This document shows, in pieces, positions 1,249 to 54,634 of a DNA stretch of 64,000 nucleotides. The translations under genes and the position numbers were made by a program. Below the pieces are notes generated by a model. That model did no database searches, was not told the DNA's origin, and saw nothing but the letters and a program-made list of their open reading frames with translations. Within the stretch, counting starts at the first letter, position 1. Each line of letters starts with the position of its first letter. The stretch is from a virus (lineage: Duplodnaviria > Heunggongvirae > Uroviricota > Caudoviricetes), in IMG/VR virus record IMGVR_UViG_3300034980_000290, one strand, 5' to 3'.

Positions 1249-2271
1249 TTGAAGAGACAGATCTTGGCGTGTAAGCTGAACGATCCCCACGGGGAACTGA
1301 GCCACGACCACGTGAACGTACTGTTCGCCGGGTCAGTAAGGCTGGCAGACATGGAAGGGTGGGACATCACCACCCGTCTTCTATGTTTCGAGGATGGTAA
1401 GCAGACAGAAGACCACCTCCTCAACTACCCCAAGTTCCCGCCCATGTTCGTTCTGCTGGATAGCGGGGCGTTCTCAGCATGGACGAAGGGCAAGGCCATC
1501 AACCTGGATGACTACGTGGATTGCATCATCCGCCATCGGGGCGTTGTCTGCCACGCTGCCAACCTCGACGTTATCCCCGGGCGGCAGGGCCAGAAACAGA
1601 TTTCAGCTTACGAGAACAGGAGAGCAGCCAGCGAGGGCTGGATGAACTACCGATACATCCTGGCCCGGCTGCGCTGGTTGGGACATGAGGACCTGTGCAG
1701 CAGAATCATGCCCATCCACCACCAGGGTGAGAGCATTGACATCCTCAAAACCATGATCGATGAGGGGTGTCAGTACGTCGGCATCAGCCCAAGCAACGAC
1801 GCCAGGACCAAGCAGAGGATGAAGTACCTGGATGAGGTCTTCACCTATCTGTCATCGCAGCCCACCCGCATCCTGACCCACGGCTATGCAGTGACCAGTG
1901 AGACGCTGATGGACAGCTATCCCTGGTTTACGGTTGACTCCATCACCTGGATTTACATCGCCGGGTTCGGGATGGTCAAGACGCCCATGGGAGCGTTTAG
2001 CTTCAGCGAGGATCCTCGTTCCCTCAAGAGCAAGGACAATCTTCGATTAGTAATCGACGAGGGAGGGGAGTGGCGGACGGACAACACGGACTTCCAGGGA
2101 TCACAGGCGGATCTGGAACGGTACATCCGTGAAGAGCTGATGACAGATGTCAACACCTTGGCTCAGGACTACTGGGCCAGAGCACTCGCCAACATCCTCT
2201 ACTTCAAGCACTTCCAGAAGACTGCTACAGGAAAGCAGAGGCAACACCTTGAAGTTCCACTCTTTGGCTGA
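1249..2271 (+). CDS. tRNA-guanine transglycosylase-like protein, possible DpdA-type DNA 7-deazaguanine transglycosylase
   Basis: 340 aa; motif FVLLDSGAFSAW resembles the TGT catalytic Asp motif (LTDSGGYQ); later THGYAV and FTVDSITW resemble TGT second-Asp and LGxG regions; TTG start at 1249, alternative ATG at 1351. Confidence 0.35.
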   Translation: MKRQILACKLNDPHGELSHDHVNVLFAGSVRLADMEGWDITTRLLCFEDGKQTEDHLLNYPKFPPMFVLLDSGAFSAWTKGKAINLDDYVDCIIRHRGVVCHAANLDVIPGRQGQKQISAYENRRAASEGWMNYRYILARLRWLGHEDLCSRIMPIHHQGESIDILKTMIDEGCQYVGISPSNDARTKQRMKYLDEVFTYLSSQPTRILTHGYAVTSETLMDSYPWFTVDSITWIYIAGFGMVKTPMGAFSFSEDPRSLKSKDNLRLVIDEGGEWRTDNTDFQGSQADLERYIREELMTDVNTLAQDYWARALANILYFKHFQKTATGKQRQHLEVPLFG

Positions 2272-2455: not shown

Positions 2456-2929
2456 ATGGCGAAACGGACGCAGAAGGGTAAGGTCGCCCCCAAGGCACCA
2501 CGCATGGGTCGTGGCAAGGCGACGGCGAGCGGAACGGCGGGCAAGCCCACCGCGAAGAAGGCCACCAAGAACGCCCCGGCGAAGAAGCCCGCCGGTCGCA
2601 AGCCTGCCGCGAAGACGCAGCCCACCGAGGGTGAGGCGTTCGTGTGCAAGATGGGCGAGTCGCAGGTCGGCGTCACCGTCAAGTCCGGTGAGACCCTGTA
2701 CGACATGCTCAAGCGGGCCGTCTTCCCCCGGGGCACCTTCAAGACGAAGGCGGGCACCGACATCACCAACCTCATCGCTGCTGCCGAGCAGGATGTGGCC
2801 CAGGGTCAGGCGACCAGCGTCGCCGCCTGTTTCCAGGACTTGCGGGTGGACGGGATGGGGGCGACCCTCGAAACGCCCATCAAGCCGGGCGTGATCGTCA
2901 CGCTGGTGCCCAAGATCACAGGCGGCTGA
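2456..2929 (+). CDS. ubiquitin-like beta-grasp protein with C-terminal Gly-Gly and histone-H1-like Lys/Ala/Pro-rich N-terminal tail
   Basis: ATG 2456 preceded by aaggag RBS at 2441-2446; protein ends ...IVTLVPKITGG immediately followed by stop, as in ThiS/MoaD/ubiquitin; N-terminal 60 aa are AKK/PAK repeats. Confidence 0.6.
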   Translation: MAKRTQKGKVAPKAPRMGRGKATASGTAGKPTAKKATKNAPAKKPAGRKPAAKTQPTEGEAFVCKMGESQVGVTVKSGETLYDMLKRAVFPRGTFKTKAGTDITNLIAAAEQDVAQGQATSVAACFQDLRVDGMGATLETPIKPGVIVTLVPKITGG

Positions 2930-2956
2930 TTCAACAGGCAGTGCGGCTGGAAGCTC

Positions 2957-2990
2957 AGGGCCGGGGGATAACGACCCCGGCCCCCTTTTT
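2957..2990 (+). terminator. rho-independent terminator
   Basis: gggccgggggataacgaccccggccc stem-loop followed by cctttttgg. Confidence 0.6.
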
Positions 2991-3001
2991 GGAGTGCCCA
3001 A

Positions 3002-4546
3002 ATGAGCGAGATTGCTGAACTACAGCCTGGGACAGCGTTCACCAAGTCCAACTGGCGGGCCTACACCAGTTCGACGCCCGGTGAAGCCGCTGGAGTCCTC
3101 GGCGCGTACCCGGAAGTGCGGCAAGACTTCCTAGATGCGTTGGGTGATCTCGCCGGGCAGATCGAGCGTGACATCTGCGTGTGCGTTGACAACCACTTCC
3201 CGTTGGGTGTTGACGAAAAGGAAGATCGCTACACCGAGAAGCAGTACCGGACCATCTACCTGCACGTGTTCGCTGCTCCCAAGGAAGCTGAGGTCACAGG
3301 GTGCCCGCAGCTCCCCTCAACGGTGTCGGTGAGCGGCGTGGAGTATGACCTCCGTGGTTGCCAGAGGGACTACCTGGAGTACGACCTCGCCCCCCTGAGC
3401 ATGATGGCCGTCAAGACCGACGGTGACGCCCAGGGCTTGGGATACAACCTGTGCCTCTTCCGTGGCCACCACCTTTACCTGAGTGCCGACCTGTTTGACA
3501 ACCGGGGCGACGAGTGGGAGAAGGGCGGTGAGGCTGACTCGGTGTGGAAGGAGCGCACCACCGAGTTCGCCATTGACTCCTGCCAAATGATCCTTGAGCT
3601 CGTCACTGCGGCGGTCGGGTGGCTGGTGCAGAGCGACACCCTCATGAGCTTCGAGGAGTACGAAAAGAAGCGCATTGAGAGGGTGTATGAGGCTTGGAAG
3701 TCCCTGCACGGGATCATGGTCAAGCAGGCATCGGTCGGCTTGACCATGAAGCTACAGAGGGCCGAGCGTGACGAGCGTACCTATCGGCGCCAGCTTGAGG
3801 AAGCTGAAGAGTTCTTACTCAAGGCCATGGCTGACCTCCATGCTGCCAAGATGCAGATGAAGGGTGTCGAGGACGGCATGACCGAGGTGTCCGTGCTGGG
3901 CAACGAGGAAATGTTCAGAAACTTGATGTCCTACTACTACGAGGACATCAAGGTCACGGGAACCGGCGGCAGCCAGACGATCACCGCAACCACGCGGATG
4001 ATTTACATCAAGGAGGAAATCCCGGTCGACATCATGAAGACCAAGGGGATGCACGTTGGCGCCGGGGAGTACAGGAACCGTGATGACATTGAAGTCCGCA
4101 TGGGCATCTTCAAGATTGGCCAGCTGAGGATCACCATTCCCATTGGCCGTGAAGATGGTGTGGGTGGCATGGGCCAGATCGTGGCCAAGAACCTGATACC
4201 CATCAAGGCACAGGATGAGTGGTGCCAGCAGACCGGCGGTGAAATCTATCACCCGCACATCAGGGGTGATGCCGGAACCAGCATCTGCTGGGGCAACATG
4301 GGTGAGCCGGTGCGAAAGCTGAGGGCAGAGAACAACGTCATGGTCTTGCTACAAGTCCTGGCGCAGTTCTTCTTCAGTTACAACCCGGCTGACGCCTACA
4401 ACCGAGTGTGGATGTGGCCAGAGGTGACGCCCGAGGACGGGTTCACCGAAGATGACCTGGTGTACGATTGCAGCAAGAAGGATGTTGGCGCGACCACCGT
4501 GGATGGTGAAGTAGCTCCGCGGCGGCGTGCAAGGAGGACTATCTAA
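3002..4546 (+). CDS. large protein with C-terminal UBC/E2-like domain
   Basis: 514 aa; C-terminal GEIYHPHIRGDAGTSICWGNMGE matches the E2 HPN...C active-site architecture (Cys 9 residues after HPH); central coiled coil; stop overlaps start of JAB gene. Confidence 0.45.
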   Translation: MSEIAELQPGTAFTKSNWRAYTSSTPGEAAGVLGAYPEVRQDFLDALGDLAGQIERDICVCVDNHFPLGVDEKEDRYTEKQYRTIYLHVFAAPKEAEVTGCPQLPSTVSVSGVEYDLRGCQRDYLEYDLAPLSMMAVKTDGDAQGLGYNLCLFRGHHLYLSADLFDNRGDEWEKGGEADSVWKERTTEFAIDSCQMILELVTAAVGWLVQSDTLMSFEEYEKKRIERVYEAWKSLHGIMVKQASVGLTMKLQRAERDERTYRRQLEEAEEFLLKAMADLHAAKMQMKGVEDGMTEVSVLGNEEMFRNLMSYYYEDIKVTGTGGSQTITATTRMIYIKEEIPVDIMKTKGMHVGAGEYRNRDDIEVRMGIFKIGQLRITIPIGREDGVGGMGQIVAKNLIPIKAQDEWCQQTGGEIYHPHIRGDAGTSICWGNMGEPVRKLRAENNVMVLLQVLAQFFFSYNPADAYNRVWMWPEVTPEDGFTEDDLVYDCSKKDVGATTVDGEVAPRRRARRTI

Positions 4547-6291
4547 TGAGCGGCGAGTTCAAGCCACCCCTGCCCCGGATACGGCGGCAAATCGGGGAGC
4601 TGGGAAGCCGACGAGATCCAAAGGAAACCGGACTGCGGGTGTACATCCCGCTCCCGGTGTACCAGAAGATGTCGGCGTTGACCATGAGCGCGGAGAGCGA
4701 AACCAGCGCCATGGGATTCGTGCACCTGGAAAAGGACAGCGACATCACGACGCTGGGCCAGGAGGTGTGGGTAGACGAGCTGGTGTTTGTCAAGAACAAG
4801 TCATCGGCCGCATCCACCGAGCTTGACCAGGACGATCTGGCCCAGGTGATGATGGCCAAGATGAAAGAGGGGCGCGACTTGATGCACATGCGCCTCTGGT
4901 TCCATACGCACTACAACTTCGACGTGTTCTGGAGCCCCACCGACCGCAACGCCAGCAAGAACACGCTGGAGAACAGCCGGTGGACCCTCAGCATTGTGAT
5001 GAACCAGAGGCATGAGCTCCGCGCTTGTGTGGACGTGTACCGCCCTGAGCATCACTGGTACGACGAGGTGCCCATCTACCTTGTGTTGGATTGCCCGACC
5101 CAGAAGTGGGACAGGTGGGCGAAGCAGGCACACAAGCGGATCAACTCCGAACGCATGATCGCCCTTGAGGACTGGCGAAGTGCTGGCGGTGACGAGCAGG
5201 GCCAGGAGTTGAGCCCCGAGTTCATCGAGCGCATTCGCAAGGAAGGCGGGATCGTCACCAGGGAAGACGCAGGCAAGAACAAGGCCGAGGTGGTTGAGGG
5301 TGACCCCGATGACCACAACGTGATTCATCACGTGTGCTCGTGCAACAAGGTGCTGGAGGTTCCGGCATCCTGCAAGAAGTTCAAGTGCCCCGAGTGTGAA
5401 CAACATTGGGACTTGAATTACAAGACCCAGGACGGGAAGGGTTCCAAGGGGCAGGCGGATGATCCAGAGCAGCAACTGACGGCTGACAGGCTGTACGTTG
5501 ATGCCTTGCAGATGCAGACGCACTTGAACGAGGAAACCGACCCCAAGGCGCTGAACGGCTTCCCGTGCAAGGAACTCTTCATGCCTGCTGTTGATGAGGA
5601 GTTTGTCGGTGGCGCTTGCTTCCCGTATGTCGAGGACGTCATCGACAACGTGGAGTACATCACGGCGGACAGGTTCGTGGAGCTGGAACTGGTGTTCCTT
5701 GGCACCCATGGACACATGAGGGTCTACGCCAACGGGACTCAATACTACTGCACCGATGACCACCCCACCCTCTCGACGGTGTTCAGTGCATCATTTGCAT
5801 CGAGCGTGGAAACCGACCAGTGGCCGAACCGATTCATCCCGGTGCGTGACGACAACGCGACCGTGGTGGCGTTTGGCGAACGAGCCACGAGCATCTGGTA
5901 CGACCTTTGGCTCAAGACTTACGTGTCCACCTACCACGATCACTCCAAGGCGGAGGATCCCACCGGGGACATCGAATACTTCGATGACATGAGCGAGCGC
6001 AGGGTCAAGAACGTGATCAGCGCCATGCTCATCGAGCGGCAGGAAGGTGGCTCCCGTGCGAACCAGCCATACCAGCCCAACCTACCCAGCCCGCCCGCGC
6101 CAAGGAGATTGGTGCAGAGTGGGGCCGGGAAGGCCCGTGTCGGGCAACCGTATGGGCAGGGTGCCTTGCGCTGGGAAGAATGGTGTGCCCAACGACAGGA
6201 CAATCCTGTCAAGGTCAGGCGCAGGGATGGCGACGGCAGCCTGAAGAACGTCAGGCTTCGGTTGGATGCGACCAACCTGGATCCGGCATAG
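4546..6291 (+). CDS. JAB/JAMM (MPN+) metalloprotease-domain protein with C-terminal zinc-ribbon region
   Basis: 581 aa; exact JAMM motif HTHYNFDVFWSPTD (HxHx7Sx2D); Cys cluster CSCN...CKKFKCPECEQHW; start overlaps upstream stop (ATGA). Confidence 0.6.
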   Translation: MSGEFKPPLPRIRRQIGELGSRRDPKETGLRVYIPLPVYQKMSALTMSAESETSAMGFVHLEKDSDITTLGQEVWVDELVFVKNKSSAASTELDQDDLAQVMMAKMKEGRDLMHMRLWFHTHYNFDVFWSPTDRNASKNTLENSRWTLSIVMNQRHELRACVDVYRPEHHWYDEVPIYLVLDCPTQKWDRWAKQAHKRINSERMIALEDWRSAGGDEQGQELSPEFIERIRKEGGIVTREDAGKNKAEVVEGDPDDHNVIHHVCSCNKVLEVPASCKKFKCPECEQHWDLNYKTQDGKGSKGQADDPEQQLTADRLYVDALQMQTHLNEETDPKALNGFPCKELFMPAVDEEFVGGACFPYVEDVIDNVEYITADRFVELELVFLGTHGHMRVYANGTQYYCTDDHPTLSTVFSASFASSVETDQWPNRFIPVRDDNATVVAFGERATSIWYDLWLKTYVSTYHDHSKAEDPTGDIEYFDDMSERRVKNVISAMLIERQEGGSRANQPYQPNLPSPPAPRRLVQSGAGKARVGQPYGQGALRWEEWCAQRQDNPVKVRRRDGDGSLKNVRLRLDATNLDPA

Positions 6292-6357
6292 AACATTAGG
6301 TCATGAAGCCCCGTGCGCTACCATGGTGTGCGGGGTAAGGTGCCCAAGGAGCAAGCC

Positions 6358-7107
6358 ATGCAAGACACGGGTGAACAGTTCAAGCGCCAAGCTGAGTTCA
6401 TCCCGCGTAGTACCTGGGAAGGCGTGACTGTTCACGTTGTCGGGTGCGGCGGGATTGGATCAGTGGCGGCGCTGGGACTGGCCAAGATCGGAGCCAGCAG
6501 GATCATCCTGTATGACGATGACACCATCGAGCTCCACAACGTGCCCAACCAGATGCTGACCGCCAACGGGGATGCCATGGGACAGCCCAAGGTGGCAGAC
6601 CTGGGCGGGATCCTGCTCGACTTTGGCGGCGAGCACATCGACGTCATCGCCGAGAACCGGCGCGTGACCACCGAAAACCCGCTGCGGATCGAGGATAGGG
6701 AGGGCCTTCACCTTGTCCTGTGCGGCCCTGACAACATGGAGACCCGCAAGGAGGTCTTCGAGTTCTGCTGCGCCCGCGACGATGTGGTGGGGTTTCTGGA
6801 TGGCCGCATGGCCAGTCGGTTCTTCACGCTGCACGTGGTGGACACGAACGACGAAGCTGAAGCCAAGGAGTACCTGGACGCCTTCTACAGCACTGAGGAG
6901 GCTGAAGAACTGCCGTGCAGCGACCGGGCCGTCTTCCACACCAACATGGTCCTTGCGGCCATGATCTGTGAACAAGCGCGGCGCATCCTCATGCACGCGC
7001 AGGAGGCTTTGGGCACCATTGACCCGGAACAGGTTTTCCGCGAAACGCCAGCGGTGAATACGAAGGTGATGTTCGACCTTACGAACCTCACCCTCATGGT
7101 TGACTGA
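6358..7107 (+). CDS. ThiF/MoeB-family E1-like adenylyltransferase
   Basis: Rossmann motif VVGCGGIGS, YDDDTIELHNVPNQ (D-D-V-SNL-RQ-like), LCGPDNMETR (DCTDNxxTR motif); ATG 6358 with aaggag RBS; ORF track start 6313 is GTG. Confidence 0.65.
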   Translation: MQDTGEQFKRQAEFIPRSTWEGVTVHVVGCGGIGSVAALGLAKIGASRIILYDDDTIELHNVPNQMLTANGDAMGQPKVADLGGILLDFGGEHIDVIAENRRVTTENPLRIEDREGLHLVLCGPDNMETRKEVFEFCCARDDVVGFLDGRMASRFFTLHVVDTNDEAEAKEYLDAFYSTEEAEELPCSDRAVFHTNMVLAAMICEQARRILMHAQEALGTIDPEQVFRETPAVNTKVMFDLTNLTLMVD

Positions 7108-7117
7108 GGAGACTCAC

Positions 7118-7837
7118 ATGCCCCTTTGTATCAAATGCCGTGTGCAGCACTGCGGAGATCACAAGTGTGCGTGCACGCTGAATCACCTGCGCATCCAGGG
7201 GCGGTGCCGTGCTGGGACGTTCTACCAGATCCAGCCCGAGGCTGGTGGAAACAGGACGCAACCGAATGGCATGTGGCGGGACCTGGGCCTGAAGATCAAC
7301 CTCACCCAGCCACTTGAGCGATACATCGCCAAGCCCAGGCGCAGCCGTGGTGAGATTCAGGGCTACCAGATCTGGCACATGATGGATGCCGCTGGGCTCC
7401 AGTGGCCGACTGATCCCACCACAGAAGGTGGGCTGTTGTTGGTTGACCACCAGAAGTTTCACGACTCGGACATCGCGCACATGCCCGATGACTGGAAGCA
7501 GACAGTAAAAGCTGTGGTGGATGACATTCCCGGCCTCTACTTCCGCAGTTTCACTCACCTCAACGCCAACAACTGGTTCGAGCGGGTGGGTGACTTCAAG
7601 GCTGACGAGACCGGGAACTTCCCACTACAGAAGTGGACCAGGTGGCTCGCCACCAACCCTGACAAGCCGCAGGTGGCCCTGGACAACTACATCCTCGTCA
7701 AGCAACGGTCTTGGCGTGAAGAATATCACTTTCAACTTGTGCAGATGGACAACAGACTGGTTCATCACCGAGTATTTGCGCCCCTCCGGCAGAAGCTGCT
7801 GGAACGTATTCAGTCGTTCGTAATGACTGTCGTATAG
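7118..7837 (+). CDS. Cys-rich zinc-finger protein (last gene of Ubl operon)
   Basis: N-terminus CIKCRVQHCGDHKCACTLNHLRIQGRC; ATG 7118 after gaggag; overlaps E1 stop. Confidence 0.45.
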   Translation: MPLCIKCRVQHCGDHKCACTLNHLRIQGRCRAGTFYQIQPEAGGNRTQPNGMWRDLGLKINLTQPLERYIAKPRRSRGEIQGYQIWHMMDAAGLQWPTDPTTEGGLLLVDHQKFHDSDIAHMPDDWKQTVKAVVDDIPGLYFRSFTHLNANNWFERVGDFKADETGNFPLQKWTRWLATNPDKPQVALDNYILVKQRSWREEYHFQLVQMDNRLVHHRVFAPLRQKLLERIQSFVMTVV

Positions 7838-7893
7838 CAACGAGTGAGGCACGTTACGCCTCAAGAAGCCCAAGCTACAAGGAGCAACTGATC

Positions 7894-8292
7894 ATGACTG
7901 ACGAAGCGATCCCCCAGGTGCAGCCGCCGGAGCCGGTGGCCCAGGAAGCCCCTCCCACAGCGCCCGCCATTGGCGATCCGGCGCCGCCCCCGCCTGCCGC
8001 CGAAGCCGCGCCCGTCCCCGAGGTGGCCGTCCCCGAGGCCGCGCCGGTTGCGGAAGCCGCCGCTGCCCCTGCCGCCACCGCCGAGGCTGCCCCGGCGAAG
8101 AAGGGCGGAAAGCCCCGCAGCGAGTTTCCGAACTGGGTCGCGACTCAGTACAAGGACAAGGATGCCCCGTTCACGGACGTGCAGGTGGACTGCGACCCGG
8201 CGAACAACATCGTCACTCTCCGCTGCACCACGGCGGGGGGCAAGACGACCACCAGCAAGATCCGCGTCAACGGCATCAACACCGTCGGTTAG
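7894..8292 (+). CDS. Pro/Ala-rich hypothetical protein
   Basis: aaggag RBS 7879-7884; 75-aa PAPEA low-complexity N-terminus then a roughly 55-aa globular tail. Confidence 0.5.
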   Translation: MTDEAIPQVQPPEPVAQEAPPTAPAIGDPAPPPPAAEAAPVPEVAVPEAAPVAEAAAAPAATAEAAPAKKGGKPRSEFPNWVATQYKDKDAPFTDVQVDCDPANNIVTLRCTTAGGKTTTSKIRVNGINTVG

Positions 8293-8381
8293 GCGAGATC
8301 TTGCGTGCAATCTAATGGCCCATCTCGCCCGCTTGGGTGGGGTGGGCCATTGCATTAGGCGTGCATTGAAGTGGCGTGTCG

Positions 8382-8406
8382 GGCCAGATAGGCCCCCTTT
8401 TTTTGG
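8382..8406 (+). terminator. rho-independent terminator
   Basis: gggcc-agata-ggccc stem then cc + T8. Confidence 0.55.
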
Positions 8407-8475
8407 CCGAATGCGGCCAAACCCAGCAGTCACAGCCCCCCGGGGCTGAATGACCATGAGAAAAGGTGTAGGCCC

Positions 8476-8790
8476 ATGGAAGACGAAACTCTTACCCCAA
8501 GCGCATGGCGTGAGCGGACCATGGCCGAGAACCCGAAGCTCAAGCCCATCAAGATGAGGCTGTGCATGGTCTTCGAGGTTGAGTCCATGCAGGACCTTGA
8601 AGCCAATGGCGGCGAAATCTCTGGCTGCGAAGCCATTGGCCAACTGGCCGACTTGATGGAACGCATCAAGGAAAACTGGAACGAAATGAGGGATATGGGG
8701 GGCTGTGCCCTTGAGCCCCTCAGTATCGTTGACTGCAACTACATGGAACGAAGTGACCGACCCGACCACCCGGAGATTATCGATGAGTGA
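8476..8790 (+). CDS. hypothetical protein
   Basis: 104-aa acidic ORF. Confidence 0.4.
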   Translation: MEDETLTPSAWRERTMAENPKLKPIKMRLCMVFEVESMQDLEANGGEISGCEAIGQLADLMERIKENWNEMRDMGGCALEPLSIVDCNYMERSDRPDHPEIIDE

Positions 8791-9022
8791 CGGAACTCCT
8801 CAAGCACGAGAAGTGGCCCCGAGCCCCCGCGCCCTGGAAGCAACCAACGCCCGGACGTCGAGCATCAATGTGAGCACGACGGCCAAGGGGAAGGTGACCT
8901 GGGATATCAAGGTGTACTTCGACGTGAGCGACAACGCCAGTCGGGAACACGGGCTGGGCGAGATCCAACTCATCGATGAGCGACTGCGCACCATGTTCGG
9001 GGATCGTGCCGCCCATGCCTGA
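8783..9022 (+). CDS. hypothetical protein
   Basis: ATG 8783 overlapping upstream stop; 79 aa. Confidence 0.35.
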   Translation: MSDGTPQAREVAPSPRALEATNARTSSINVSTTAKGKVTWDIKVYFDVSDNASREHGLGEIQLIDERLRTMFGDRAAHA

Positions 9023-9374
9023 CAACAAACCCGGGCAACTGATTGACTGCGAGTATGCGGAGGTGATGTTCAAGCATCAGACCATCGCAAGCGCAGTCAA
9101 CTCTGAGGATGTGGCGATGCTTCGCCAGCACCTTGGGAACTCCACCGTGTTGGAGTTTGATCAAACCGAGACGCCACCGGCCCACTTCAGCATCCGTGGG
9201 TATGCCAGCAAGGGAGCTGGAGACCTGGTCATACAGGTCGATGAGGCGTGGGTTCTGGAGGTGTACGATCGTCTGATGGGGGTGCGCACCTTTCCGGAAA
9301 CCATCGTCATCAGCAAGGAGGCCAACCCCAAGGATTTTGAGACAGGCGTCGGGTTCGACAGCTCTGGTGCGTAG
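9015..9374 (+). CDS. hypothetical protein
   Basis: ATG 9015 overlapping upstream stop (ATGCCTGA); 119 aa. Confidence 0.4.
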   Translation: MPDNKPGQLIDCEYAEVMFKHQTIASAVNSEDVAMLRQHLGNSTVLEFDQTETPPAHFSIRGYASKGAGDLVIQVDEAWVLEVYDRLMGVRTFPETIVISKEANPKDFETGVGFDSSGA

Positions 9375-9434
9375 GCCCAAGCGACGAAAGAACGTACGCA
9401 CCATTTCGTATAGGAGCGTGGAGACACACCACGC

Positions 9435-9629
9435 ATGCCCAGACCTCAGCGCTGGAAGATCATGTACCCCAAACGGTTGAAAGACTGGAAAACCGGCAAA
9501 GAGTCGGTACGGTGGTACCAGATTGGTCTGGCAACTGAAGGCGCTGACGGCGAGATCAAGTGCAACTTCAACAGCATGCCAGTCGGCGATTGGGACGGTA
9601 CGGTACGGCTTGAACCGATAGATGAGTAG
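9435..9629 (+). CDS. hypothetical protein
   Basis: 64-aa ORF coupled to next gene. Confidence 0.35.
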   Translation: MPRPQRWKIMYPKRLKDWKTGKESVRWYQIGLATEGADGEIKCNFNSMPVGDWDGTVRLEPIDE

Positions 9630-10179
9630 ACACCACTACATCTTCATGAAGCTGGACGGTGTGTTGACCACACCAGAGGGCTTGCAGCAGTGCAGACATG
9701 AAGATAGCCGTGACCGTGGACTGCCGACGAAGATAGACCGCCCAAGCCTTGAACGGCTTGCCGCATTCGTTCGCTCGCATGGTGGGACCAGACGCTTTCG
9801 CATCATGCTCACCTCAGCATGGCGCTACATCCCCAAGATAGACCACAGGTTAGGTCACCTGTGGTGCCCGAAGGGACTACCCCGCCCTGAGATCTTACCT
9901 TGGGTGGGGTTCACAGATGAACGAACCACCGGCATGGTGCTCATGGATTGGATGGAATCCAACATGAGCAAGGTGGAGGAGTGGGCCATCCTGGACAACA
10001 ATGAAGAAGATGCCAGCGGATTCCGGCCAGAGCGTACTAAGCTGATCACTGAGGGCTTTCAGGATGAGCACGCTCAATGGCTGGCCAGCCTCTTCGGCAT
10101 CGAGCCCTGGAAGAGTCACATGGAGGTGGTGCCAGCAACCCGGGCACCAACCTTTGGCTCTCTGTACGGGACGGCCTAA
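9622..10179 (+). CDS. HAD-like phosphatase-fold protein (nucleophile Asp replaced by Lys)
   Basis: N-terminal IFMKLDGVLT resembles HAD motif I hhhDxDGVL, but first Asp is Lys. Confidence 0.3.
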   Translation: MSRHHYIFMKLDGVLTTPEGLQQCRHEDSRDRGLPTKIDRPSLERLAAFVRSHGGTRRFRIMLTSAWRYIPKIDHRLGHLWCPKGLPRPEILPWVGFTDERTTGMVLMDWMESNMSKVEEWAILDNNEEDASGFRPERTKLITEGFQDEHAQWLASLFGIEPWKSHMEVVPATRAPTFGSLYGTA

Positions 10180-33198: not shown

Positions 33199-33497
33199 TG
33201 ATCAGCTTGGATCAACTTAGCTTCAGTATCATGGCGGTTTGTTCGGTCAGGTACGCCCTGGGCAAAGAAACCGTTGAAGTGAAGGATATCGCCGAAATCG
33301 TACTGGCCAACCTCCAATACCTGGAGGCAGACGATCTCGAGGGTATGATCCACGACATCTGCAACTCACCGCGCAGCCATGGCGCTGGTGAGATGACCTG
33401 GAAGGCTTTCTGCAAGCGGCTGTCGGAGCAGCTTGCCAGCCTTGACACGAACGGTTTTCGGCGGTGTGTCTCGAAACTGGCGGAGAGATGGGTCTGA
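33198..33497 (+). CDS. hypothetical protein upstream of sigma factor
   Basis: 99 aa; ATG overlaps upstream TGA. Confidence 0.4.
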   Translation: MISLDQLSFSIMAVCSVRYALGKETVEVKDIAEIVLANLQYLEADDLEGMIHDICNSPRSHGAGEMTWKAFCKRLSEQLASLDTNGFRRCVSKLAERWV

Positions 33498-33537
33498 AAA
33501 GCGTATAACTCCTTGTCAGGAAAAGGCCCGCCACCTG

Positions 33538-34527
33538 ATGGCCAAGAAAAGCACCAAGAAATCTGCAGAGCCAGAGGCAGTGCAACAAGCGTGGAAACGC
33601 TACAAGTCCAGAGGTGCAAAGGGGGGACGGCAAGAGGATAGGGACATCATTGTTGGCCAGTACATGCAGCTCGTTCGCTACGCTGCGAACCATGCCTGGA
33701 AGACGCTGCCGAACAACATTGATGTTGAAGACCTGGTATCCACTGGGTTTTTTGGTCTTTTGGACGCGATTGAGGGTTTTGACCTCTCGCGCAAGATCAA
33801 GTTCAAGACCTACTGCATGATGCGCATTCGTGGCGCCATGCTTGACGGCCTTCGCCGAGAGGATTGGATACCCCGCCTCGTTCGCTTGAAGGCCAGCCAG
33901 CACCGCAAAGCCGCCAAGAACGTGATGGCCCGCACTGGCTTACCGCCAACCCAAGAAGAAATGGCTGACGAGCTCGGTCTCACCGAGATTGAGTATGCCA
34001 AGTTCAAAAAGGCGATGGGGGTCATTCATGTCTACCCCCTGTCAGACAAGTTTGAGGCTGGCACCAGCGGCGAAGGCGTTGATAAGATTGATGTCATCGC
34101 CGATCCCAAGTCTGCTGAACCCATTGTTGAGCTTGAATCTGCTGATGCTGTAGTGCACATCATGCGGTGCTTGACAGCGCGTGAGAAGCGCATTGTGATG
34201 ATGTACTACTACATGGGCTTCACGATGAAGCAGATCTCGGAAGCCTTGGATCTCACTGAATCTCGCGTTTGCCAGATACACTCAGCCTTCATTGAGCGGT
34301 TGAGGTGCATGATTGAAAGAGACGGGCTTGACAATGCCGAAATACCGCAAGGGCGAAATGATGACGCGGTGGGGGTCTGTCGGGCTGTTTTGCGTGACCT
34401 CAAATGGCGTGGTGAAGAACGACGGCGATCTGGTAATGGGAAGAGGAATGGCCGCTTTACTGAAAAAGAAGTGGCCGCAATCCGCAACCCTGGCGGGAGA
34501 GAAGGCGACGGCGTGGTACAAGGCTGA
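33538..34527 (+). CDS. sigma-70 family RNA polymerase sigma factor (FliA/sigma-28-like group)
   Basis: region 2 DLVSTGFFGLLDAIEGFD...YCMMRIRGAMLDGLRR; region 4 HTH LTAREKRIVMMYYYMGFTMKQISEALDLTESRVCQIHSAFIERLR; C-terminal 70 aa low-complexity and overlapping next gene. Confidence 0.7.
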   Translation: MAKKSTKKSAEPEAVQQAWKRYKSRGAKGGRQEDRDIIVGQYMQLVRYAANHAWKTLPNNIDVEDLVSTGFFGLLDAIEGFDLSRKIKFKTYCMMRIRGAMLDGLRREDWIPRLVRLKASQHRKAAKNVMARTGLPPTQEEMADELGLTEIEYAKFKKAMGVIHVYPLSDKFEAGTSGEGVDKIDVIADPKSAEPIVELESADAVVHIMRCLTAREKRIVMMYYYMGFTMKQISEALDLTESRVCQIHSAFIERLRCMIERDGLDNAEIPQGRNDDAVGVCRAVLRDLKWRGEERRRSGNGKRNGRFTEKEVAAIRNPGGREGDGVVQG

Positions 34528-35426: not shown

Positions 35427-36392
35427 ATGCCGACAAAGACAACCAAGAAAACCGCCAAGAAGGCGCGAAAGAAGCGTACGCCCAAGGTCAAGCACGACCC
35501 GGTGTACGATCGCAATCTCCTCAAGCAGCTCGTGAGAACGTGCTATGACCTTCAGGAGAAGAGGATGGCCCATGGGCAGCGCCAGAAGGCCCTTGCCCAC
35601 CGTGGAATGCCAGAGCTCAACGAAAGCGACACAGGCGCCTTCGCCGAAATCTTCGGCGGCTTCAAAGACGTTGAAAGGCTCATCGAGAAGCAGATCCATA
35701 AGGTGCTGAAGAGGTTCCCAATCTGGACCAAGTGGTTGGACGAAGTCACAGGTGTTGGCCCAATGATGGGCGGCATCATCGTGAGCAAGTTCGACCCCTA
35801 CGACGCACCAGCCCCTGAAGGCTACGGGGTTGAACACGCTGGTGCCTATGAAGGCAAGTACCTGTTCCGTGAGTGCATTGACAAGGAGAAGGACACCTGG
35901 AATGTTGAGGAGCGCGAGTGCATCATGCGCCAGCGCACCGTCAGCCAGTTTTGGGCGTACTCCGGACTCCACACCATCGAGGTCGATGACAAGGAGGGTG
36001 GCAGGAAGCGTGTGGCGGCGCGGCAGGTAGCTGGGAAGCAGGGCAACTACGAGACATGGCTCAGGGCCAAGCTGTTGGGTGTCCTGGGTGACATCATGAT
36101 CAAGGGAGGCAGCCCGTACAAGAGGTACTACGACGAATGCAAGAAGCGTCGTATAGCCATGGGCTGGGGCACGACCGACATGCACCGGCACAAGGACGCC
36201 AAGCGGCACATGATGAAGTGTTTCATCATGGACCTCTACGTGCAGTGGCGTACGGTGCTTGACCTTCCGGTCAGGGCACCGTACGCCCTTGCAAAGATGG
36301 GGTTGTCCCCGGCGCAAGCGTTCCATGTAGAGGAACACCCAGGGTGGAACAGAAAGGACGCCGCTGAGGCGGCAGCAGCAGCAAATGGATGA
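35427..36392 (+). CDS. basic protein with helix-hairpin-helix region resembling IS110-transposase C-terminal (Transposase_20-like) domain; no DEDD nuclease domain seen
   Basis: Lys-rich N-term; VTGVGPMMGGIIVSKFDPYD and QFWAYSGLHTIEVDDKEGGRK...GNYETWLRAKLLGVLGDIM...YKRYYDECKKRR pattern. Confidence 0.35.
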   Translation: MPTKTTKKTAKKARKKRTPKVKHDPVYDRNLLKQLVRTCYDLQEKRMAHGQRQKALAHRGMPELNESDTGAFAEIFGGFKDVERLIEKQIHKVLKRFPIWTKWLDEVTGVGPMMGGIIVSKFDPYDAPAPEGYGVEHAGAYEGKYLFRECIDKEKDTWNVEERECIMRQRTVSQFWAYSGLHTIEVDDKEGGRKRVAARQVAGKQGNYETWLRAKLLGVLGDIMIKGGSPYKRYYDECKKRRIAMGWGTTDMHRHKDAKRHMMKCFIMDLYVQWRTVLDLPVRAPYALAKMGLSPAQAFHVEEHPGWNRKDAAEAAAAANG

Positions 36393-41095: not shown

Positions 41096-42787
41096 GTGAG
41101 TAGACTTAAACTTGGTCGCCAGATCTCCGATACGTCGCGACAAGCGATCAATGAGGAGATCATGCGCTATGCCGGAGACGAGTATCTCTGGCATCGACAC
41201 GTAACGGGTGTCGACCTTTACCCTCACCAGCAGGTCTACTGCAAGCATCTGAGGGAATTTCACACCAACTTGATGATCGCCAGTCGGCGTATCGGCAAGT
41301 CATTCAGTGTAGCCAGCTTCCTCCTGAAGGAGGCTGTGACCAAGCCCCGCTCCGAGATCAACATCCATGCCCCCGCGCTGGAGCAGAGCAAGCGCAACCT
41401 GCGGTACATGATTGACATGTGCCTCAACAGTGACATCTTGATGGCTTTCATTGAGAAGAAGCTGGGCGAAGGCATTGGCAAGGAGTCGATCGAATTCTGC
41501 AACGGTAGTGTCATCCAAGCCAAGGGGCAGGCATCGTCGGTTGACGGCCTTGGCGCGACCCACCAGTGGTGGGAAGAGGTAGATGACATGATGCTCGACA
41601 CCCTGTACGAGCGCATTTATCCGACAGGCTCCATGATCAAGCCCAGCTATGACTACGGTCAATGGGGCCAGTGCTGCCGTATCGCCACGGGCACCATCAA
41701 GGGCAAGGGCAACACGTACACCTTTGAGCACCCCCCAGAAGGCGCTGGGGTTACCTTCCACGTACTTCCTAAGTACACCGGGTGGCATGGGGTTGAGTGG
41801 GGCATTATCCCGCGCAATGACCTCATCCTTGCCCGCGACGTTCTGATGACCCCAGAACAGTTCGCGCGCACCTACCTCGTCCTGTACACTGAGTCGGCCA
41901 ACTTCTTCCCCACCCGCAAGGTGGACCAGTGCCAGCACCCGAACCTGAAGTGCATCGACATCGTCGAGTACAAGAAGGAAACTGGCAGCCCGCACTACAT
42001 CGCTGAAGGCAATGTCACGGTGGGCATCGACTGCGGCGGCCAGGGCACAGGGGACCACCCATCTGAGTGGGCCATTGACTTCTGCGAGGACCTGGGCTGG
42101 GGCCATATGAAGTGGATCTACGGTGAGCGATTCTCCGCCACCGCCGACCCTGAAGAGGTGCGCCAGCAGATGGGCGCCCTGTGTGAGTTCTTCCGCCCAG
42201 GCCGTGGGTACGGTGATGCTTTCGATACCACCTTCTTGTATGGTCTGAACAAGTACCTGCGCGAGCATGGTGTTACCAAGCGTGACCCGGCTGACTGGGA
42301 GAACCGTCAGGGAGCGGGTGGTTGGGCTGAGTGGCACATCGTACCCATCCGGTTCATCGGTATCACCAAGCACCAGTTGTTCAAGAACTTGCGCATGCAG
42401 TTCTTCCAGCAGCGCCTGAAAATCCCGTACTACGTTGATGACCTGCCCGAGTACAAGGAACTGAAAAAGCTCCGTGACCAGCTTGAAAACATCAAGAAGG
42501 CTGACATGGCAGCGACGCAGGGATACGACAAGTACGAGATGGTCAGAGCCGCTGTCGGGGATGACCACGTAGATGCGACGGCCTTGGCCGTATATGCACA
42601 GGGTGAGCTGACTCAAAATGTCAGGCCACTTGGGATGGCGGTTGAGGGTGGCGGCTTCCGGGACTTCTCGCAGCCGAACATCGTTAGCGACCAAGTGTTC
42701 GTTCAGAGGCCTTCGGGGATCTTTACCCCGATCGGTGACTCTGCTCCGCCAACGAACGTCGGAGACTTTCTCAAGGACCGAGATTGA
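41096..42787 (+). CDS. terminase large subunit
   Basis: 563 aa, GTG start; Walker A-like ASRRIGKS; position immediately upstream of portal. Confidence 0.7.
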   Translation: MSRLKLGRQISDTSRQAINEEIMRYAGDEYLWHRHVTGVDLYPHQQVYCKHLREFHTNLMIASRRIGKSFSVASFLLKEAVTKPRSEINIHAPALEQSKRNLRYMIDMCLNSDILMAFIEKKLGEGIGKESIEFCNGSVIQAKGQASSVDGLGATHQWWEEVDDMMLDTLYERIYPTGSMIKPSYDYGQWGQCCRIATGTIKGKGNTYTFEHPPEGAGVTFHVLPKYTGWHGVEWGIIPRNDLILARDVLMTPEQFARTYLVLYTESANFFPTRKVDQCQHPNLKCIDIVEYKKETGSPHYIAEGNVTVGIDCGGQGTGDHPSEWAIDFCEDLGWGHMKWIYGERFSATADPEEVRQQMGALCEFFRPGRGYGDAFDTTFLYGLNKYLREHGVTKRDPADWENRQGAGGWAEWHIVPIRFIGITKHQLFKNLRMQFFQQRLKIPYYVDDLPEYKELKKLRDQLENIKKADMAATQGYDKYEMVRAAVGDDHVDATALAVYAQGELTQNVRPLGMAVEGGGFRDFSQPNIVSDQVFVQRPSGIFTPIGDSAPPTNVGDFLKDRD

Positions 42788-42812: not shown

Positions 42813-44441
42813 ATGCAATCAGATACCTTCTACATGGGCGACGGCGGGAAGCTTTTCATCAAAGGCCCGTACGGCCAGACTCCTGGCCTCGCCGAGAAGG
42901 GCGACCGGGAGTTTGTGGGTGGCGGCTACAAGCTGAAGCCTGTCACTCGTCAGACCGATGGCGGCAGTCTTGAAGTAGTCACTGAGATCGTCAACGCGGC
43001 CAGTGGCAGCACCTTCTTTGATGACCGCGCTGGCTTCTTCGGTTTCAGCCAGGATGCCTTCCGCAGCGCCCCCACCGCCCGGCGTGAGTTTCTGGATGAG
43101 GGATACCGGCTCTGGAAGTACGACCCCCTTGGCGGGGTCATCGTCAACCTGACGACCTTCTTTACCATGGGCCGTGGCCTCACCATCAACTACAATGACC
43201 CCACGGTCAATCAGGTGCTTGCCAAGTTCTGGAAGAAGAACAAGATGCCATGCAGAGTGAAGCAGCTTTGCGATGAAGGCACGGCATTTGGTGACAACTT
43301 CATTGGGCTGCGGGTGCACCGCCAGCTCATGATGAACGGTCGCAAGGTGCTCTGGCGCCCGGGTGATGTTGAGGTTGTGATTTACGACCCCAAGATCGTC
43401 GACGGCATTGAGCACGCAGCTGACAACGTACAGAACGTGTTCAGTTATCGCCTCAGCTACACAGGTGAGGGCGGTGAAGAGATCAACCGTGGTGTGGTCG
43501 ACATCAGCAAGTTCGACCCGGACATCCACGATGAGTGCATCCTGCACGTGAAGTTCAACGCGGCCACCAACGACGCTTACGGCCTGTCGGATCTGGTGCG
43601 CATCAAGGAGTGGCTGGACAATTACCAGGACTTCTTGCGCGACTCGGTCATTATCAACAAGTTGTACCGTTCCCCCTGCTACGACATCACCATCAAGGAC
43701 GGCGACGAGACGGACATCGCCAACGCGGTGAGCAGGTACGGTGGCTGGAAGATTGGTGCCAACGCAGTTCACAACGACAAGGAAGAGTGGGCGGTACTCG
43801 AGTTCACCGGAGCCAACATGAGCTCCGAGGACAGCCGCCGCGCCCTGCTTCTGATCGTGTGCGCTGGCGTGGGCATGCCAGAATACATGCTGGGCGATGG
43901 ATCGAATGGCAACATGGCGTCGACGCGGAGCCAACAGCTCCCCGCGATCAAGAAGTTCGAGGATCGCCAGCATACCTACCAACAGTCGTTCGTGATTCTG
44001 TTCGACTTCGTGCTTGACATGAAGATGCTGTTCGCGCAAGGCACGTCCCGGCCCATCCCCGAGGTGGACTTTGAGGGCGACCGCACGTGGCGCGGCGAGA
44101 TCAACTTCCCCGAGATTGCGCGGGAAGAGGATAGCGTGGTGGCCAGCAGCACGGCATCGCTGGTCGAGGCTGGGCTCATGGCCCGCAGCACGGCGGCCAT
44201 CAAAAATGGCATGGACTACGAAGAGCAGCTCCGGCGCATGCAGGCCGATGCTATCTTGACTGCACAGCTCATCAAGGAAACGCAGGCGATGCTTTCCTCG
44301 CTGGGGGTGGACCCCAATGAAGCTGCTGAGATTATCAACAAGGCGTTCATCAGCGTCATGACCCCACCCGATGAAAAACCAGATCCCGCTGAGGGAGGCG
44401 GCCCGCCGCCTGCACGAAAGGAATCGAAGCAAGCAGCCTAA
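42813..44441 (+). CDS. portal protein
   Basis: 542 aa following terminase; size and order typical. Confidence 0.6.
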   Translation: MQSDTFYMGDGGKLFIKGPYGQTPGLAEKGDREFVGGGYKLKPVTRQTDGGSLEVVTEIVNAASGSTFFDDRAGFFGFSQDAFRSAPTARREFLDEGYRLWKYDPLGGVIVNLTTFFTMGRGLTINYNDPTVNQVLAKFWKKNKMPCRVKQLCDEGTAFGDNFIGLRVHRQLMMNGRKVLWRPGDVEVVIYDPKIVDGIEHAADNVQNVFSYRLSYTGEGGEEINRGVVDISKFDPDIHDECILHVKFNAATNDAYGLSDLVRIKEWLDNYQDFLRDSVIINKLYRSPCYDITIKDGDETDIANAVSRYGGWKIGANAVHNDKEEWAVLEFTGANMSSEDSRRALLLIVCAGVGMPEYMLGDGSNGNMASTRSQQLPAIKKFEDRQHTYQQSFVILFDFVLDMKMLFAQGTSRPIPEVDFEGDRTWRGEINFPEIAREEDSVVASSTASLVEAGLMARSTAAIKNGMDYEEQLRRMQADAILTAQLIKETQAMLSSLGVDPNEAAEIINKAFISVMTPPDEKPDPAEGGGPPPARKESKQAA

Positions 44442-48002: not shown

Positions 48003-48040
48003 GGCAGGCGGGCCTGTTTGGCCGCCTGCCTTTTTCTATG
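48003..48040 (+). terminator. rho-independent terminator after capsid gene
   Basis: ggcaggcgggcctgtttggccgcctgcc stem then tttttct. Confidence 0.7.
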
Positions 48041-49438
48041 ATCTCAGCATTAGAGTCGTATATCTCGGGCATGGCTAACAACGGGAAGAAGACGATTCTG
48101 TTCATGACCGACCTCGCAGATACGGGGTTTGGTCGTGTGGGCCAAGAGATCGTCAAACGCTTTGCCCTCAGCGGCATGTACAACGTCGTCTACCTCGGTT
48201 GGGTGGCCCGCAACCCTGCCGTGGTGGAAAAGTGGAAAGAGCTGGGCGTAGTGGTTCAGATGTGCGACGGCAGCATCGAGGACCAGTTCGCACAGAAGAC
48301 CCTGCCACGGGCTATCGAGCACTACCAGCCCGACCTCATCTGGACACTGGGTGACCCATGGATGGTCGACCACGTCAGCAAGATGCCCGGCTACGGTCAG
48401 GACTGGCGCTGGATCAGCTACGTGCCCATCGATCGTGATGAGCTGAACAAGAGCTGGCTGCCCGCCCTCAAGGCCCCTGATGCCCTGGTGCTGTACAGCC
48501 ACTTCGGAGCAGAGGTGGTCAAGCGCCACCTGCCCCGCGTGCAGACCGAAGTGATCTACCACGGGGTGGATACTGACGTGTTCCGGCCCATGGACAAGGC
48601 GGCGTGCAAGCAGGCCCTCGGCATCGACCCCAGCACGTTCATCTTTGGCTTCGTGGGGCGCAACCAGATCCGCAAGCGCATCCCCAGGTTCATGCGGGCC
48701 TTCCACTTCTGGAACTGCCAGCGGTACCAGGAGAACGCCGAGATCAAGGTGCGCAACGATGGCCATGATGAGCTGTGGAACGCTCGGGACTACGCCCGGC
48801 AGGTCTGCCACATGCGCCCCGAGCACTACATGAGGGGAGGCCACTTCCGCCAGCTCCCTGACCGTGCCAACAGCGCCGTCTACCTCCACACCACGAAGGG
48901 CTACACCGACCAGAACGATGGTCTGTGGGTAGGTTGGAACCTCAATGAGTACAGCACGCGCTTCAACCTGGACGACAACGTGATGGGCAAGCCCAGCCGT
49001 ACCATGTTGCCCAGTGAGAAGTCCATGGCGAACATCGAGCATTACCTGCCCGATGAGCATCTCGCCAAGCTGTACAACATCATCGACGTGCACGTGATGC
49101 CAAGCTGCCGTGAGGGCTTTGGCCTGCCCATTATCGAGGCTGCGTCAAGCGGGCTTCCCAGTATCGTGACGGGGTACAGCAGCATGCCGGAGCTGGTTGC
49201 AGATGGCCGTGGCATGTCAGTACCCCCAAGCGACTTCGACGACGAGCCTTTCTTCGACGCCCCCTCAGCCCTGGTTGACATCGCTGGGCTGGTGGAGGCG
49301 ATGAATCAGGCCGTGGCCGAACACGCATCCGGCGCCTGGGCTGAGCGGCAGAAGACTTGCCGCGCCTGGGCTGTCGAGCACACGTGGGACAAGAAGTTTG
49401 GTGAGTTCCACAAGCTGGTGAAAGAGGTCATGATCTAA
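48038..49438 (+). CDS. GT-B glycosyltransferase (group 1 / GT4-like)
   Basis: C-terminal EGFGLPIIEAASSGLPSIVTGYSSMPELV (E-x7-E region of GT4 family). Confidence 0.7.
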   Translation: MISALESYISGMANNGKKTILFMTDLADTGFGRVGQEIVKRFALSGMYNVVYLGWVARNPAVVEKWKELGVVVQMCDGSIEDQFAQKTLPRAIEHYQPDLIWTLGDPWMVDHVSKMPGYGQDWRWISYVPIDRDELNKSWLPALKAPDALVLYSHFGAEVVKRHLPRVQTEVIYHGVDTDVFRPMDKAACKQALGIDPSTFIFGFVGRNQIRKRIPRFMRAFHFWNCQRYQENAEIKVRNDGHDELWNARDYARQVCHMRPEHYMRGGHFRQLPDRANSAVYLHTTKGYTDQNDGLWVGWNLNEYSTRFNLDDNVMGKPSRTMLPSEKSMANIEHYLPDEHLAKLYNIIDVHVMPSCREGFGLPIIEAASSGLPSIVTGYSSMPELVADGRGMSVPPSDFDDEPFFDAPSALVDIAGLVEAMNQAVAEHASGAWAERQKTCRAWAVEHTWDKKFGEFHKLVKEVMI

Positions 49439-54575: not shown

Positions 54576-54634
54576 CACCGCCCCGCTTGGACTGCTGACC
54601 CGGGCATCCCAAGGTGTCCGGGTTTTGTAGTATA

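Follow-up and report, generated by a model that had tools for sequence, protein, structure and literature searches.

A tailed-phage gene cluster encoding a ubiquitin-like protein together with E2-like, JAMM and E1-type proteins

Organization of the locus

The DNA analyzed here (the window: 64,000 nucleotides of IMG/VR record IMGVR_UViG_3300034980_000290, itself part of a source contig of ~112.6 kb) carries five consecutive, co-directional open reading frames (ORFs) on the plus strand between positions 2456 and 7837. In order, these encode a ubiquitin-like protein (Ubl), a large protein with an E2-like C-terminus (ORF B, hereafter E2L), a protein of the JAB/JAMM type (ORF C), an E1-type adenylating enzyme, and a fifth protein with an N-terminal cysteine knuckle (ORF E). 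The window is from a tailed phage: matches to PHROGs identify genes for the large terminase, portal and tape-measure proteins downstream of the cluster (Table 1). No close cultured relative of this phage was found, and the terminase shares just 30% identity with that of a Microcystis siphophage.

An earlier reading of the sequence (the original prediction) had described five genes in one direction, partly overlapping, borne by the phage itself and next to an early region bounded by a terminator. The common direction of all five ORFs is confirmed, and the structural genes bear out the phage origin. Overlap is restricted to ORF B and ORF C, the stop and start of which are joined in TAATG; the supposed overlap of ORF E with the E1 gene disappears once ORF E is taken to start at ATG 7118 rather than TTG 7100, a choice based on a GAGGAG site and on conservation of the MPLC start in homologues. 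Shine-Dalgarno sites (AAGGAG) likewise precede the Ubl gene, 8 nt upstream of ATG 2456, and the E1 gene at ATG 6358. The terminator proved to be placed differently: the strong hairpin at 2958-2983 does not bound the early region, but separates the Ubl gene from ORF B within the unit.

Table 1. Features of the cluster, of the surrounding phage genome and of a look-alike in a cultured phage. Positions refer to the window unless an accession is given.
Feature	Position	Strand	Details
DpdA-like DNA transglycosylase	1249-2271		phrog_887; directly upstream of the Ubl gene, likewise throughout the close clade
Ubl gene	2456-2929	+	157 aa; polybasic disordered tail, then beta-grasp core, ending ...VPKITGG-stop
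Ubl N-terminal tail	2456-2635	+	residues 1-60; 28% K/R, 33% A/P, isoelectric point (pI) 11.7; predicted disordered
Tail motif AP[KR][MLV]G	2495-2509	+	APRMG; conserved
Intrinsic-terminator-like hairpin	2958-2993	+	9 G-C pairs, then T run; between Ubl gene and ORF B
ORF B (E2L)	3002-4546	+	514 aa; N-terminal alpha/beta domain ~10-178, long helical region ~179-311, C-terminal UBC-like module ~313-480
UBC/E2-like module of ORF B	3938-4441	+
HPH-x9-C-x-GN signature	4250-4297	+	HPHIRGDAGTSICWGN; ORF B residues 417-432
Candidate catalytic Cys429 of ORF B	4286-4288	+
SYNPAD	4376-4393	+	counterpart of E2 motif PNPDDP
ORF C	4546-6291	+	581 aa; start coupled to ORF B stop; C-terminal half uncharacterized
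JAMM/MPN+ metalloprotease domain of ORF C			~residues 30-180
JAMM Glu52	4699-4701
JAMM HxHx7Sx2D	4903-4944		HTHYNFDVFWSPTD; ORF C residues 120-133
CxC...CxxC zinc ribbon of ORF C	5335-5397		CSC...CPEC, residues 264-284; Pfam zinc-ribbon matches below threshold
E1 gene	6358-7107	+	249 aa; single-domain ThiF/MoeB-type adenylating enzyme
E1 motif FKRQ	6379-6390
E1 motif GCGGIG	6442-6459
E1 LHNVPN	6532-6549		residues 59-64; position of 'SNLQRQ'
E1 motif DNMETR	6730-6747
E1 motif LPCSDR	6910-6927
ORF E	7118-7837	+	239 aa; N-terminal CxxC-x7-HxC knuckle (7127-7168), then uncharacterized domain
ORF F	7894-8292	+	132 aa; acidic P/A/E-rich low-complexity N-terminal tail, small conserved C-terminal domain
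Terminator-like site	8381-8395		ORF F is the last gene before it
HAD_SAK_2 phosphatase-like domain	9622-10179		PF18143, E = 9e-7
Sigma factor	33433-34527		phrog_351
Transposase-like gene	35427-36392		phrog_4285
Large terminase	41096-42787		PHROGs match
Portal	42813-44441		PHROGs match
Glycosyltransferase	48038-49438		phrog_2170
Tape-measure protein	54614-58246		PHROGs match
crAss001 look-alike	NC_049977.1 81394-85804		locus L010 1295-5705

The ubiquitin-like protein and its terminator

If the first gene encodes a conjugable modifier, then its product should have a beta-grasp fold and a flexible C-terminal tail ending in glycine. Both features are found. The reading frame ends exactly in Gly-Gly-stop, as first described, and structure prediction returned the expected beta-grasp fold, the nearest fold matches being SAMP1, MoaD, ThiS, CysO and TtuB; the terminal Gly is present in all Ubl homologues. 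Direct scans of five collections (Pfam, PHROGs, PADLOC, NCBIfam and PDB sequences) with the Ubl gave no match.

The N-terminal tail had been likened to histone H1 on account of its KAP-rich composition. That composition – basic and rich in Ala and Pro – is confirmed, and is conserved in six homologues, where the tails are 40-60 residues long with 23-33% K/R, at most 4% D/E and a pI of ~12. Apart from the motif AP[KR][MLV]G, which is also kept, the tail sequence is variable, and in the structure model of the window protein the predicted local distance difference test score (pLDDT) is below 50 at residues 17-55. A second AP[KR]MG motif, sought as a hint to possible targets, does not occur elsewhere in the window. 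An H1-like, DNA-binding role for the tail is speculation, as are the biological roles put forward in the original prediction.

A hairpin followed by a U run lies 3' of the Ubl gene in each of the five lineages checked (the window and contigs L001, L002, L007 and L009). Since these structures recur even though their sequences are unrelated, the hairpin appears to be a conserved attenuator, one that probably yields more Ubl than enzymes.

The E2-like protein

Direct comparison of ORF B with the same five collections gave no match. A word-indexed homologue search recovered a single relative, even from a 10-sequence profile, so that exhaustive HMMER searching (over 1.84 billion cluster representatives) was needed: this returned approximately 10 full-length relatives and 53 further proteins that share the C-terminal module only. 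Among the 10 full-length relatives, which are 19-58% identical to the window protein, residues H417, P418, H419, C429 and G431 are invariant.

These residues define the HPH...C signature that the original prediction had assigned to a UBC domain, and three lines of evidence support the assignment. Firstly, Pfam UQ_con is matched by three of the 53 module relatives (best E = 2.9e-5). Secondly, a reference hidden Markov model built from four human E2 sequences aligns, in many ORF B relatives, its HPN to the HPH and its catalytic Cys to the family Cys. Thirdly, comparison by hhalign of the 63-sequence module alignment with those four E2s (UBE2D2, UBE2N, UBE2I and UBE2L3) gave a probability of 94% and E = 1.5e-7 over 86 columns, in a register that places HPN on HPH, Cys on Cys and PNPDDP on SYNPxD. 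The N-terminal domain of ORF B, which served as the negative control in the same test, gave a probability of 0.2%; the idea that this domain is a second UBC/RWD-like domain was rejected on that value. The pattern of motifs that characterizes the E2 superfamily (HPN-type motif, catalytic Cys some 7-10 residues further on, and a PxxPxxP-like segment such as PNPDDP) is thus present in ORF B, with His in place of the Asn of HPN, and the C-terminus is best described as a diverged UBC/E2 module. The AlphaFold 2 model of ORF B (mean pLDDT 74.5) was uninformative in fold searches, which recovered no UBC fold.

The JAMM protein and the E1

The HxHx7Sx2D motif and zinc ribbon earlier noted in ORF C are both present. 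The residues E52, H120, H122, S130 and D133 are invariant in five ORF C relatives, the identity of which to the window protein falls as low as 17%. A profile of the family finds an Rpn11-like structure in the PDB (6fjv, E = 0.004), aligned exactly on the JAMM motif. ORF C itself does not reach the Pfam thresholds for JAB or Prok-JAB, and one relative matches Prok-JAB with E = 0.015. Taken together, motif and profile support identification of ORF C as a putative JAMM protease.

The E1 is the most readily recognized member of the set. It matches Pfam PF00899 (ThiF) with E = 6.9e-20 (71.6 bits against a cutoff of 28.1), the domain spanning residues 36-230 in a 264-aa reading of the gene; ThiF and MoeB structures are matched in the PDB at ~1e-7, and the GCGGIG and DNxxTR motifs named in the original prediction are both present. 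Scores fall below every NCBIfam equivalog cutoff, so the protein is not ThiF, MoeB or UbaA proper. The Cys of LPCSDR (Cys187 in the window) is kept in all full-length E1s seen and is a candidate for the crossover-loop thioester residue, at what we take to be the position of MoeB C187 and ThiF C184.

Occurrence in other phage-like contigs

At least seven lineages of phage-like contigs have Ubl, E2-like, JAB and E1 genes together: the gene set is a module. The four genes are neighbors in L001, L002-4, L009, L013/14 and L015. Contigs L001 and L002-L006 carry dpdA, Ubl, E2L, JAB, E1, ORF E and ORF F in identical order (L002 and L003 are 99.96% identical), and contigs that are cut retain parts of the set – dpdA, Ubl and E2L in that order in L007, E2L, JAB and E1 in L008, and a further part in L012. 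Within this close clade the position of the cluster is fixed, between dpdA and conserved early genes, while identity of E2L to the window protein is 27-55%. In L002, positions 4031-9817 encode QueD, QueE, QueC, FolE and QueF besides the DpdA-like gene; from these genes and dpdA we infer that the close clade comprises phages with 7-deazaguanine-modified DNA.

Distant copies are found directly by tblastn with the window JAB, E1 and E2L C-terminus. L009 encodes a 73-aa Ubl that ends in RAG and has no basic tail, with E2L, a 229-aa JAB protein and E1. L015 has a 91-aa Ubl ending in DAG, then E2L, ThiF and JAB: a different order, beside RecA and SbcCD-like genes. On the P0018 contig, E2L, a 300-aa gene and ThiF stand beside DnaB. 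L013/14 encode a 66-aa Ubl, a 360-aa E2L, JAB and ThiF. The JAMM motif is also present in the JAB proteins of L013 and L015. The L013 Ubl (7669-7869 of that contig) ends in IKGG-NA and thus, unlike the window Ubl, has two residues beyond the GG. Such a protein would need a peptidase, a requirement that connects the JAB enzyme with the C-terminal end of the Ubl.

Identity to the window proteins (tblastn) declines from the Ubl core (54-83%) and E1 (47-66%) through JAB (40-54%) and E2L (27-55%) to ORF E (25-31%). This gradient fits a constrained tag and activator accompanied by fast-evolving specificity parts (E2L and ORF E).

A single Ubl-based scan of 185,579 GTDB species genomes did not find the cluster, and hence did not find it in the prophages or defense islands of those genomes. 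Scans of IMG/VR and JGI metagenome contigs gave no further loci, and neither ORF B nor the JAB protein had a tblastn match among cultured phages. E1 homologues occur in ~80 cultured phages (crAss-like phages, Flavobacterium FpV4, and phages of Xanthomonas and Erwinia).

Comparison with known systems

Of the known systems, BilABCD (Bacterial ISG15-like; Type I and Type II operons; Hör et al. and Chambers et al.) is the closest in organization. The gene order (Ubl, E2, JAB deubiquitinase, E1) is shared (PMC10557695), as are the C-terminal Gly of the Ubl, the thioester chemistry expected of the E2 Cys and a JAB enzyme that would act on the Ubl C-terminus; BilABCD conjugates its Ubl to lysines (PMC10557695). 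The original prediction had likened the set to Bil and to the CBASS Cap2/Cap3 type. Membership in these families is not upheld: PADLOC models of Bil match neither the Ubl nor ORF B nor ORF C, and no member of any of the families matches BilA, BilB or BilC. The match of the BilD model to the E1 (E = 1.2e-4) is owed to the generic adenylation domain and ranks under many generic E1-E2 models, which themselves align to the E1 adenylation core only (best E = 5.7e-11).

Architecture differs too. The E1 of BilABCD is a multidomain protein (IAD, AAD and CYS), whereas that of the window is a single adenylation domain of 249 aa. Also unlike Bil, the E2 module of the window is the C-terminal part of a multidomain protein of 514 aa, the JAB protein (581 aa) includes a zinc ribbon, and the Ubl is one beta-grasp domain with a polybasic tail. 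The HPN-like HPH is retained, whereas Iyer et al. (2006) describe their classes 6c and 6d as being without the classical His (class 6c being Bil Type II according to Chambers et al.). Bil operons are bacterial and often lie in defense islands; the present cluster is in a phage genome. Because the Bil models are unmatched, the E1 is not multidomain and the host is a virus, we do not regard the cluster as a member of BilABCD.

Type II CBASS Cap2/Cap3 and 6A-MBL (classes 6a and 6b of Iyer et al.) likewise combine E1, E2 and JAB activities. In CBASS, however, an E2-E1 fusion acts on a CD-NTase, which stands in the place of the modifier, whereas in the window the E2 and E1 genes are kept apart by the JAB gene, and the modifier is a dedicated Ubl; E2L and JAB proteins match no Cap2 or Cap3 model. 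Bub operons also encode Ubl, E2 and E1, and the E1 has a weak PDB match to BubCD (E = 5e-4). Disordered N-terminal extensions on Ubls are described for Bub and for Type II Bil (PMC11601603). Bub chemistry nonetheless proceeds via oxyester (serine) intermediates and employs a serine protease as well as a fusion of peptidase and E1 in which a catalytic Cys is lacking; the window proteins have a conserved Cys in both E1 and E2L, and a JAMM protease, and Bub models do not match the cluster. Archaeal sampylation (SAMP1/2-UbaA-HvJAMM1) has no E2, in contrast to the invariant, co-inherited E2-like module found here in a viral setting.

In phages, the sole Ubl-JAB pairing noted in the survey of Iyer et al. 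(2006) is that of TAPI (Ubl) and TAPK (JAB+NlpC) in lambda and T1. These proteins belong to a tail-assembly cluster with neither E1 nor E2, the Ubl is contained within a larger protein of that cluster, and nothing there implies a conjugation cascade. A closer look-alike occurs in crAss001 (Gp79-Gp76): a small protein (Gp79, 225 aa, the N-terminus of which is beta-grasp-like by eye), a ~440-aa protein (Gp78, 444 aa), a JAMM protein (Gp77, HSHNNMATFFSGTD) and a ThiF protein (Gp76) that is 30% identical to the window E1 and has a 160-aa N-terminal extension. The genes are annotated merely as hypothetical, metalloprotease and ThiF. Gp78 was considered as an E2L homologue and rejected at the sequence level: since it has no similarity to the E2 module, the crAss001 genes are treated as an analogue, not as a demonstrated homologue.

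A literature search found no description of a phage-encoded Ubl-E2-JAB-E1 system, with the qualification that coverage of subscription journals was incomplete and a prior mention is possible. The parts list and the probable chemistry were known already; new here are the setting in a virus, the domain architectures and the subfamily of E2.

Proposed function

We consider it probable, by a fair though not a wide measure, that the cluster is a phage-deployed module for the reversible conjugation of Ubl to proteins. According to this model the minimal E1, presumably a homodimer, would adenylate Gly157 of the Ubl, and Cys187 would probably then take the Ubl as a thioester and pass it to Cys429 in the HPH...C site of E2L. 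The choice of target may rest with the N-terminal domain and helical region of E2L – which would replace a separate E3, perhaps with help from ORF E – and, during infection, proteins of the cell that are targeted would receive the Ubl on their lysines. The JAMM protease would reverse or edit the conjugates: it is not expected to be needed for maturation in the window, where the Ubl is made ending in GG. Given a leaky conserved terminator after the Ubl gene, the tag could be far more abundant than the enzymes. Each conjugate would then display a polybasic tail of 60 residues, which might offer acceptor lysines for chains or draw the target onto nucleic acid.

As to what such tagging might achieve, there is perhaps an even chance that it is offensive, with host or phage proteins, particularly those associated with nucleic acid, being marked by a Ubl that resembles a histone tail in its polybasic character. 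More generally, a fixed, vertically inherited position in the early/middle region, recurrence in distant phage-like contigs and absence from the species-genome scan suggest that the cluster serves the phage's own infection cycle, through host takeover or counter-defense, and is not accessory cargo.

Several observations weigh against a conjugation system. The best structural and sequence relatives of both Ubl and E1 are sulfur-carrier proteins. The E1 has no UFD or other known E2-docking domain, and it does not have the Arg of the ThiF/MoeB ATP-binding motif 'NLQRQ', reading NVPNQ instead: in all six aligned sequences the position of the Arg in 'SNLQRQ' is Asn, Val or Gly. None of the full-length E2L proteins (ORF B and its 10 relatives) reaches the threshold of a Pfam E2 family (UQ_con or Prok-E2). 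The argument from vertical inheritance draws on a handful of metagenomic contigs.

Phages often carry defense systems, and the cluster could be one of them: a Bil-like anti-phage system, borne as cargo, that tags structural proteins of competing, co-infecting phages and so excludes superinfection, much as bacterial Bil marks the central tail fiber. A gene order identical to that of BilABCD agrees with this, as does the rapid evolution of E2L and ORF E, which would fit an arms race; furthermore, one report (10.1101/2023.09.04.556158) has Bil placing its Ubl on a phage tail protein. The cluster nevertheless keeps its syntenic place between dpdA and the early genes and does not occupy a variable, moron-like spot; nor was it found in the species genomes scanned, and the Bil profiles either fail to match or (BilD) do so through a generic domain. 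On balance we regard a cargo-defense role as unlikely.

Less likely again is a sulfur-carrier pathway like those of ThiS, MoaD and CysO. In such a pathway the Ubl, adenylated by the E1 and turned into a thiocarboxylate, would give its sulfur to a metabolite or to modification of a nucleoside, with the JAB protein in the role of Mec+/QbsD and ORF B as an unrelated partner. The fold matches of the Ubl and the ThiF and MoeB matches of the E1 are those that such a system predicts, nucleobase-modification genes adjoin the cluster, and Iyer et al. (2006; rows 4a-4e of their Table 1) list ThiS-JAB-E1 triads from sulfur pathways. Pfam scans of the five genes and 10 neighboring ORFs, however, detect no rhodanese, cysteine desulfurase, cysteine synthase, MoaE/ThiG or PP-loop sulfurtransferase, and the 249-aa E1 has no rhodanese extension. 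An E2-type HPH...Cys module that is invariant and always co-inherited is difficult to account for in a sulfur pathway, and the 60-residue polybasic tail has no obvious use there. The known 7-deazaguanine DNA modifications of phages, moreover, contain no sulfur.

The proximity of dpdA raises a last alternative, which we think very improbable: that the activated C-terminus of the Ubl goes to something other than a protein, through MccB-like chemical modification (MccB-type E1-like enzymes, which perform non-conjugative C-terminal chemistry, are among the PDB matches) or by joining to the aminomethyl group of preQ1 bases that the DpdA pathway places in phage DNA. The latter form, a protein-DNA 'ubiquitylation' in which a preQ1-type 7-deazaguanine amine bears the Ubl and the genome is shielded or organized as a result, is itself a very long shot. 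The cluster lies directly downstream of dpdA throughout the close clade, L002 has FolE, QueD, QueE, QueC and QueF, L015 has QueD within 8 kb, and a polybasic tail would suit DNA binding; yet common descent explains the synteny with dpdA, the available sequence of L009, L013 and the P0018 contig contains no deazaguanine genes, the L009 Ubl has no basic tail, and the idea has neither precedent nor direct evidence.

Significance

Until now, prokaryotic operons with Ubl, E2, deubiquitinase and E1 have been characterized as bacterial anti-phage weapons (Bil, CBASS Cap2/3) or remained unassigned (Bub). Here a full set is encoded by a virus; it is conserved as a module in several lineages of uncultured phages and has an architecture of its own: a minimal E1, a polybasic-tailed tag and a giant E2. 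If the proposed conjugation module is active, then this would be the first bacteriophage to 'ubiquitylate' proteins of its host cell, a parallel to those viruses of eukaryotes that subvert the ubiquitin machinery or encode such machinery themselves. The HPH-Cys site of E2L is nearer to classical eukaryotic E2s than are Bil-type E2s as described, and brings a viral branch into the debate over the origin of UBC-type E2s. Being compact and E3-less, the system is suited to reconstitution; look-alike modules that have escaped annotation are also flagged in cultured phages, crAss001 for example, where experiments are feasible.

Downstream genes and other features of the window

ORF E matches nothing in the five collections scanned with the Ubl. 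The suggestion that this fifth gene is E3-like is therefore not sustained: profile and PDB scans detect nothing that resembles it, E3s included. Its homologues from L001 and L002/L003 are 25-31% identical; the gene evolves fast and is kept as the downstream neighbor in the close clade. An apparent difference in ORF E between L002 and L003 was dismissed as an artefact of gene calling, tblastn finding the gene in both of these near-identical contigs. ORF E is possibly an adaptor or a substrate.

ORF F follows directly after ORF E in L001 and L002/L003 as well (alignment and tblastn), and may or may not be part of the module. The charge of its tail is opposite to that of the Ubl tail. A few genes further downstream is the HAD_SAK_2 phosphatase-like domain listed in Table 1, which occupies an equivalent relative position in L001 and L002/L003. 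Elsewhere the window encodes a sigma factor, a transposase-like gene and, amid the structural genes, a glycosyltransferase.

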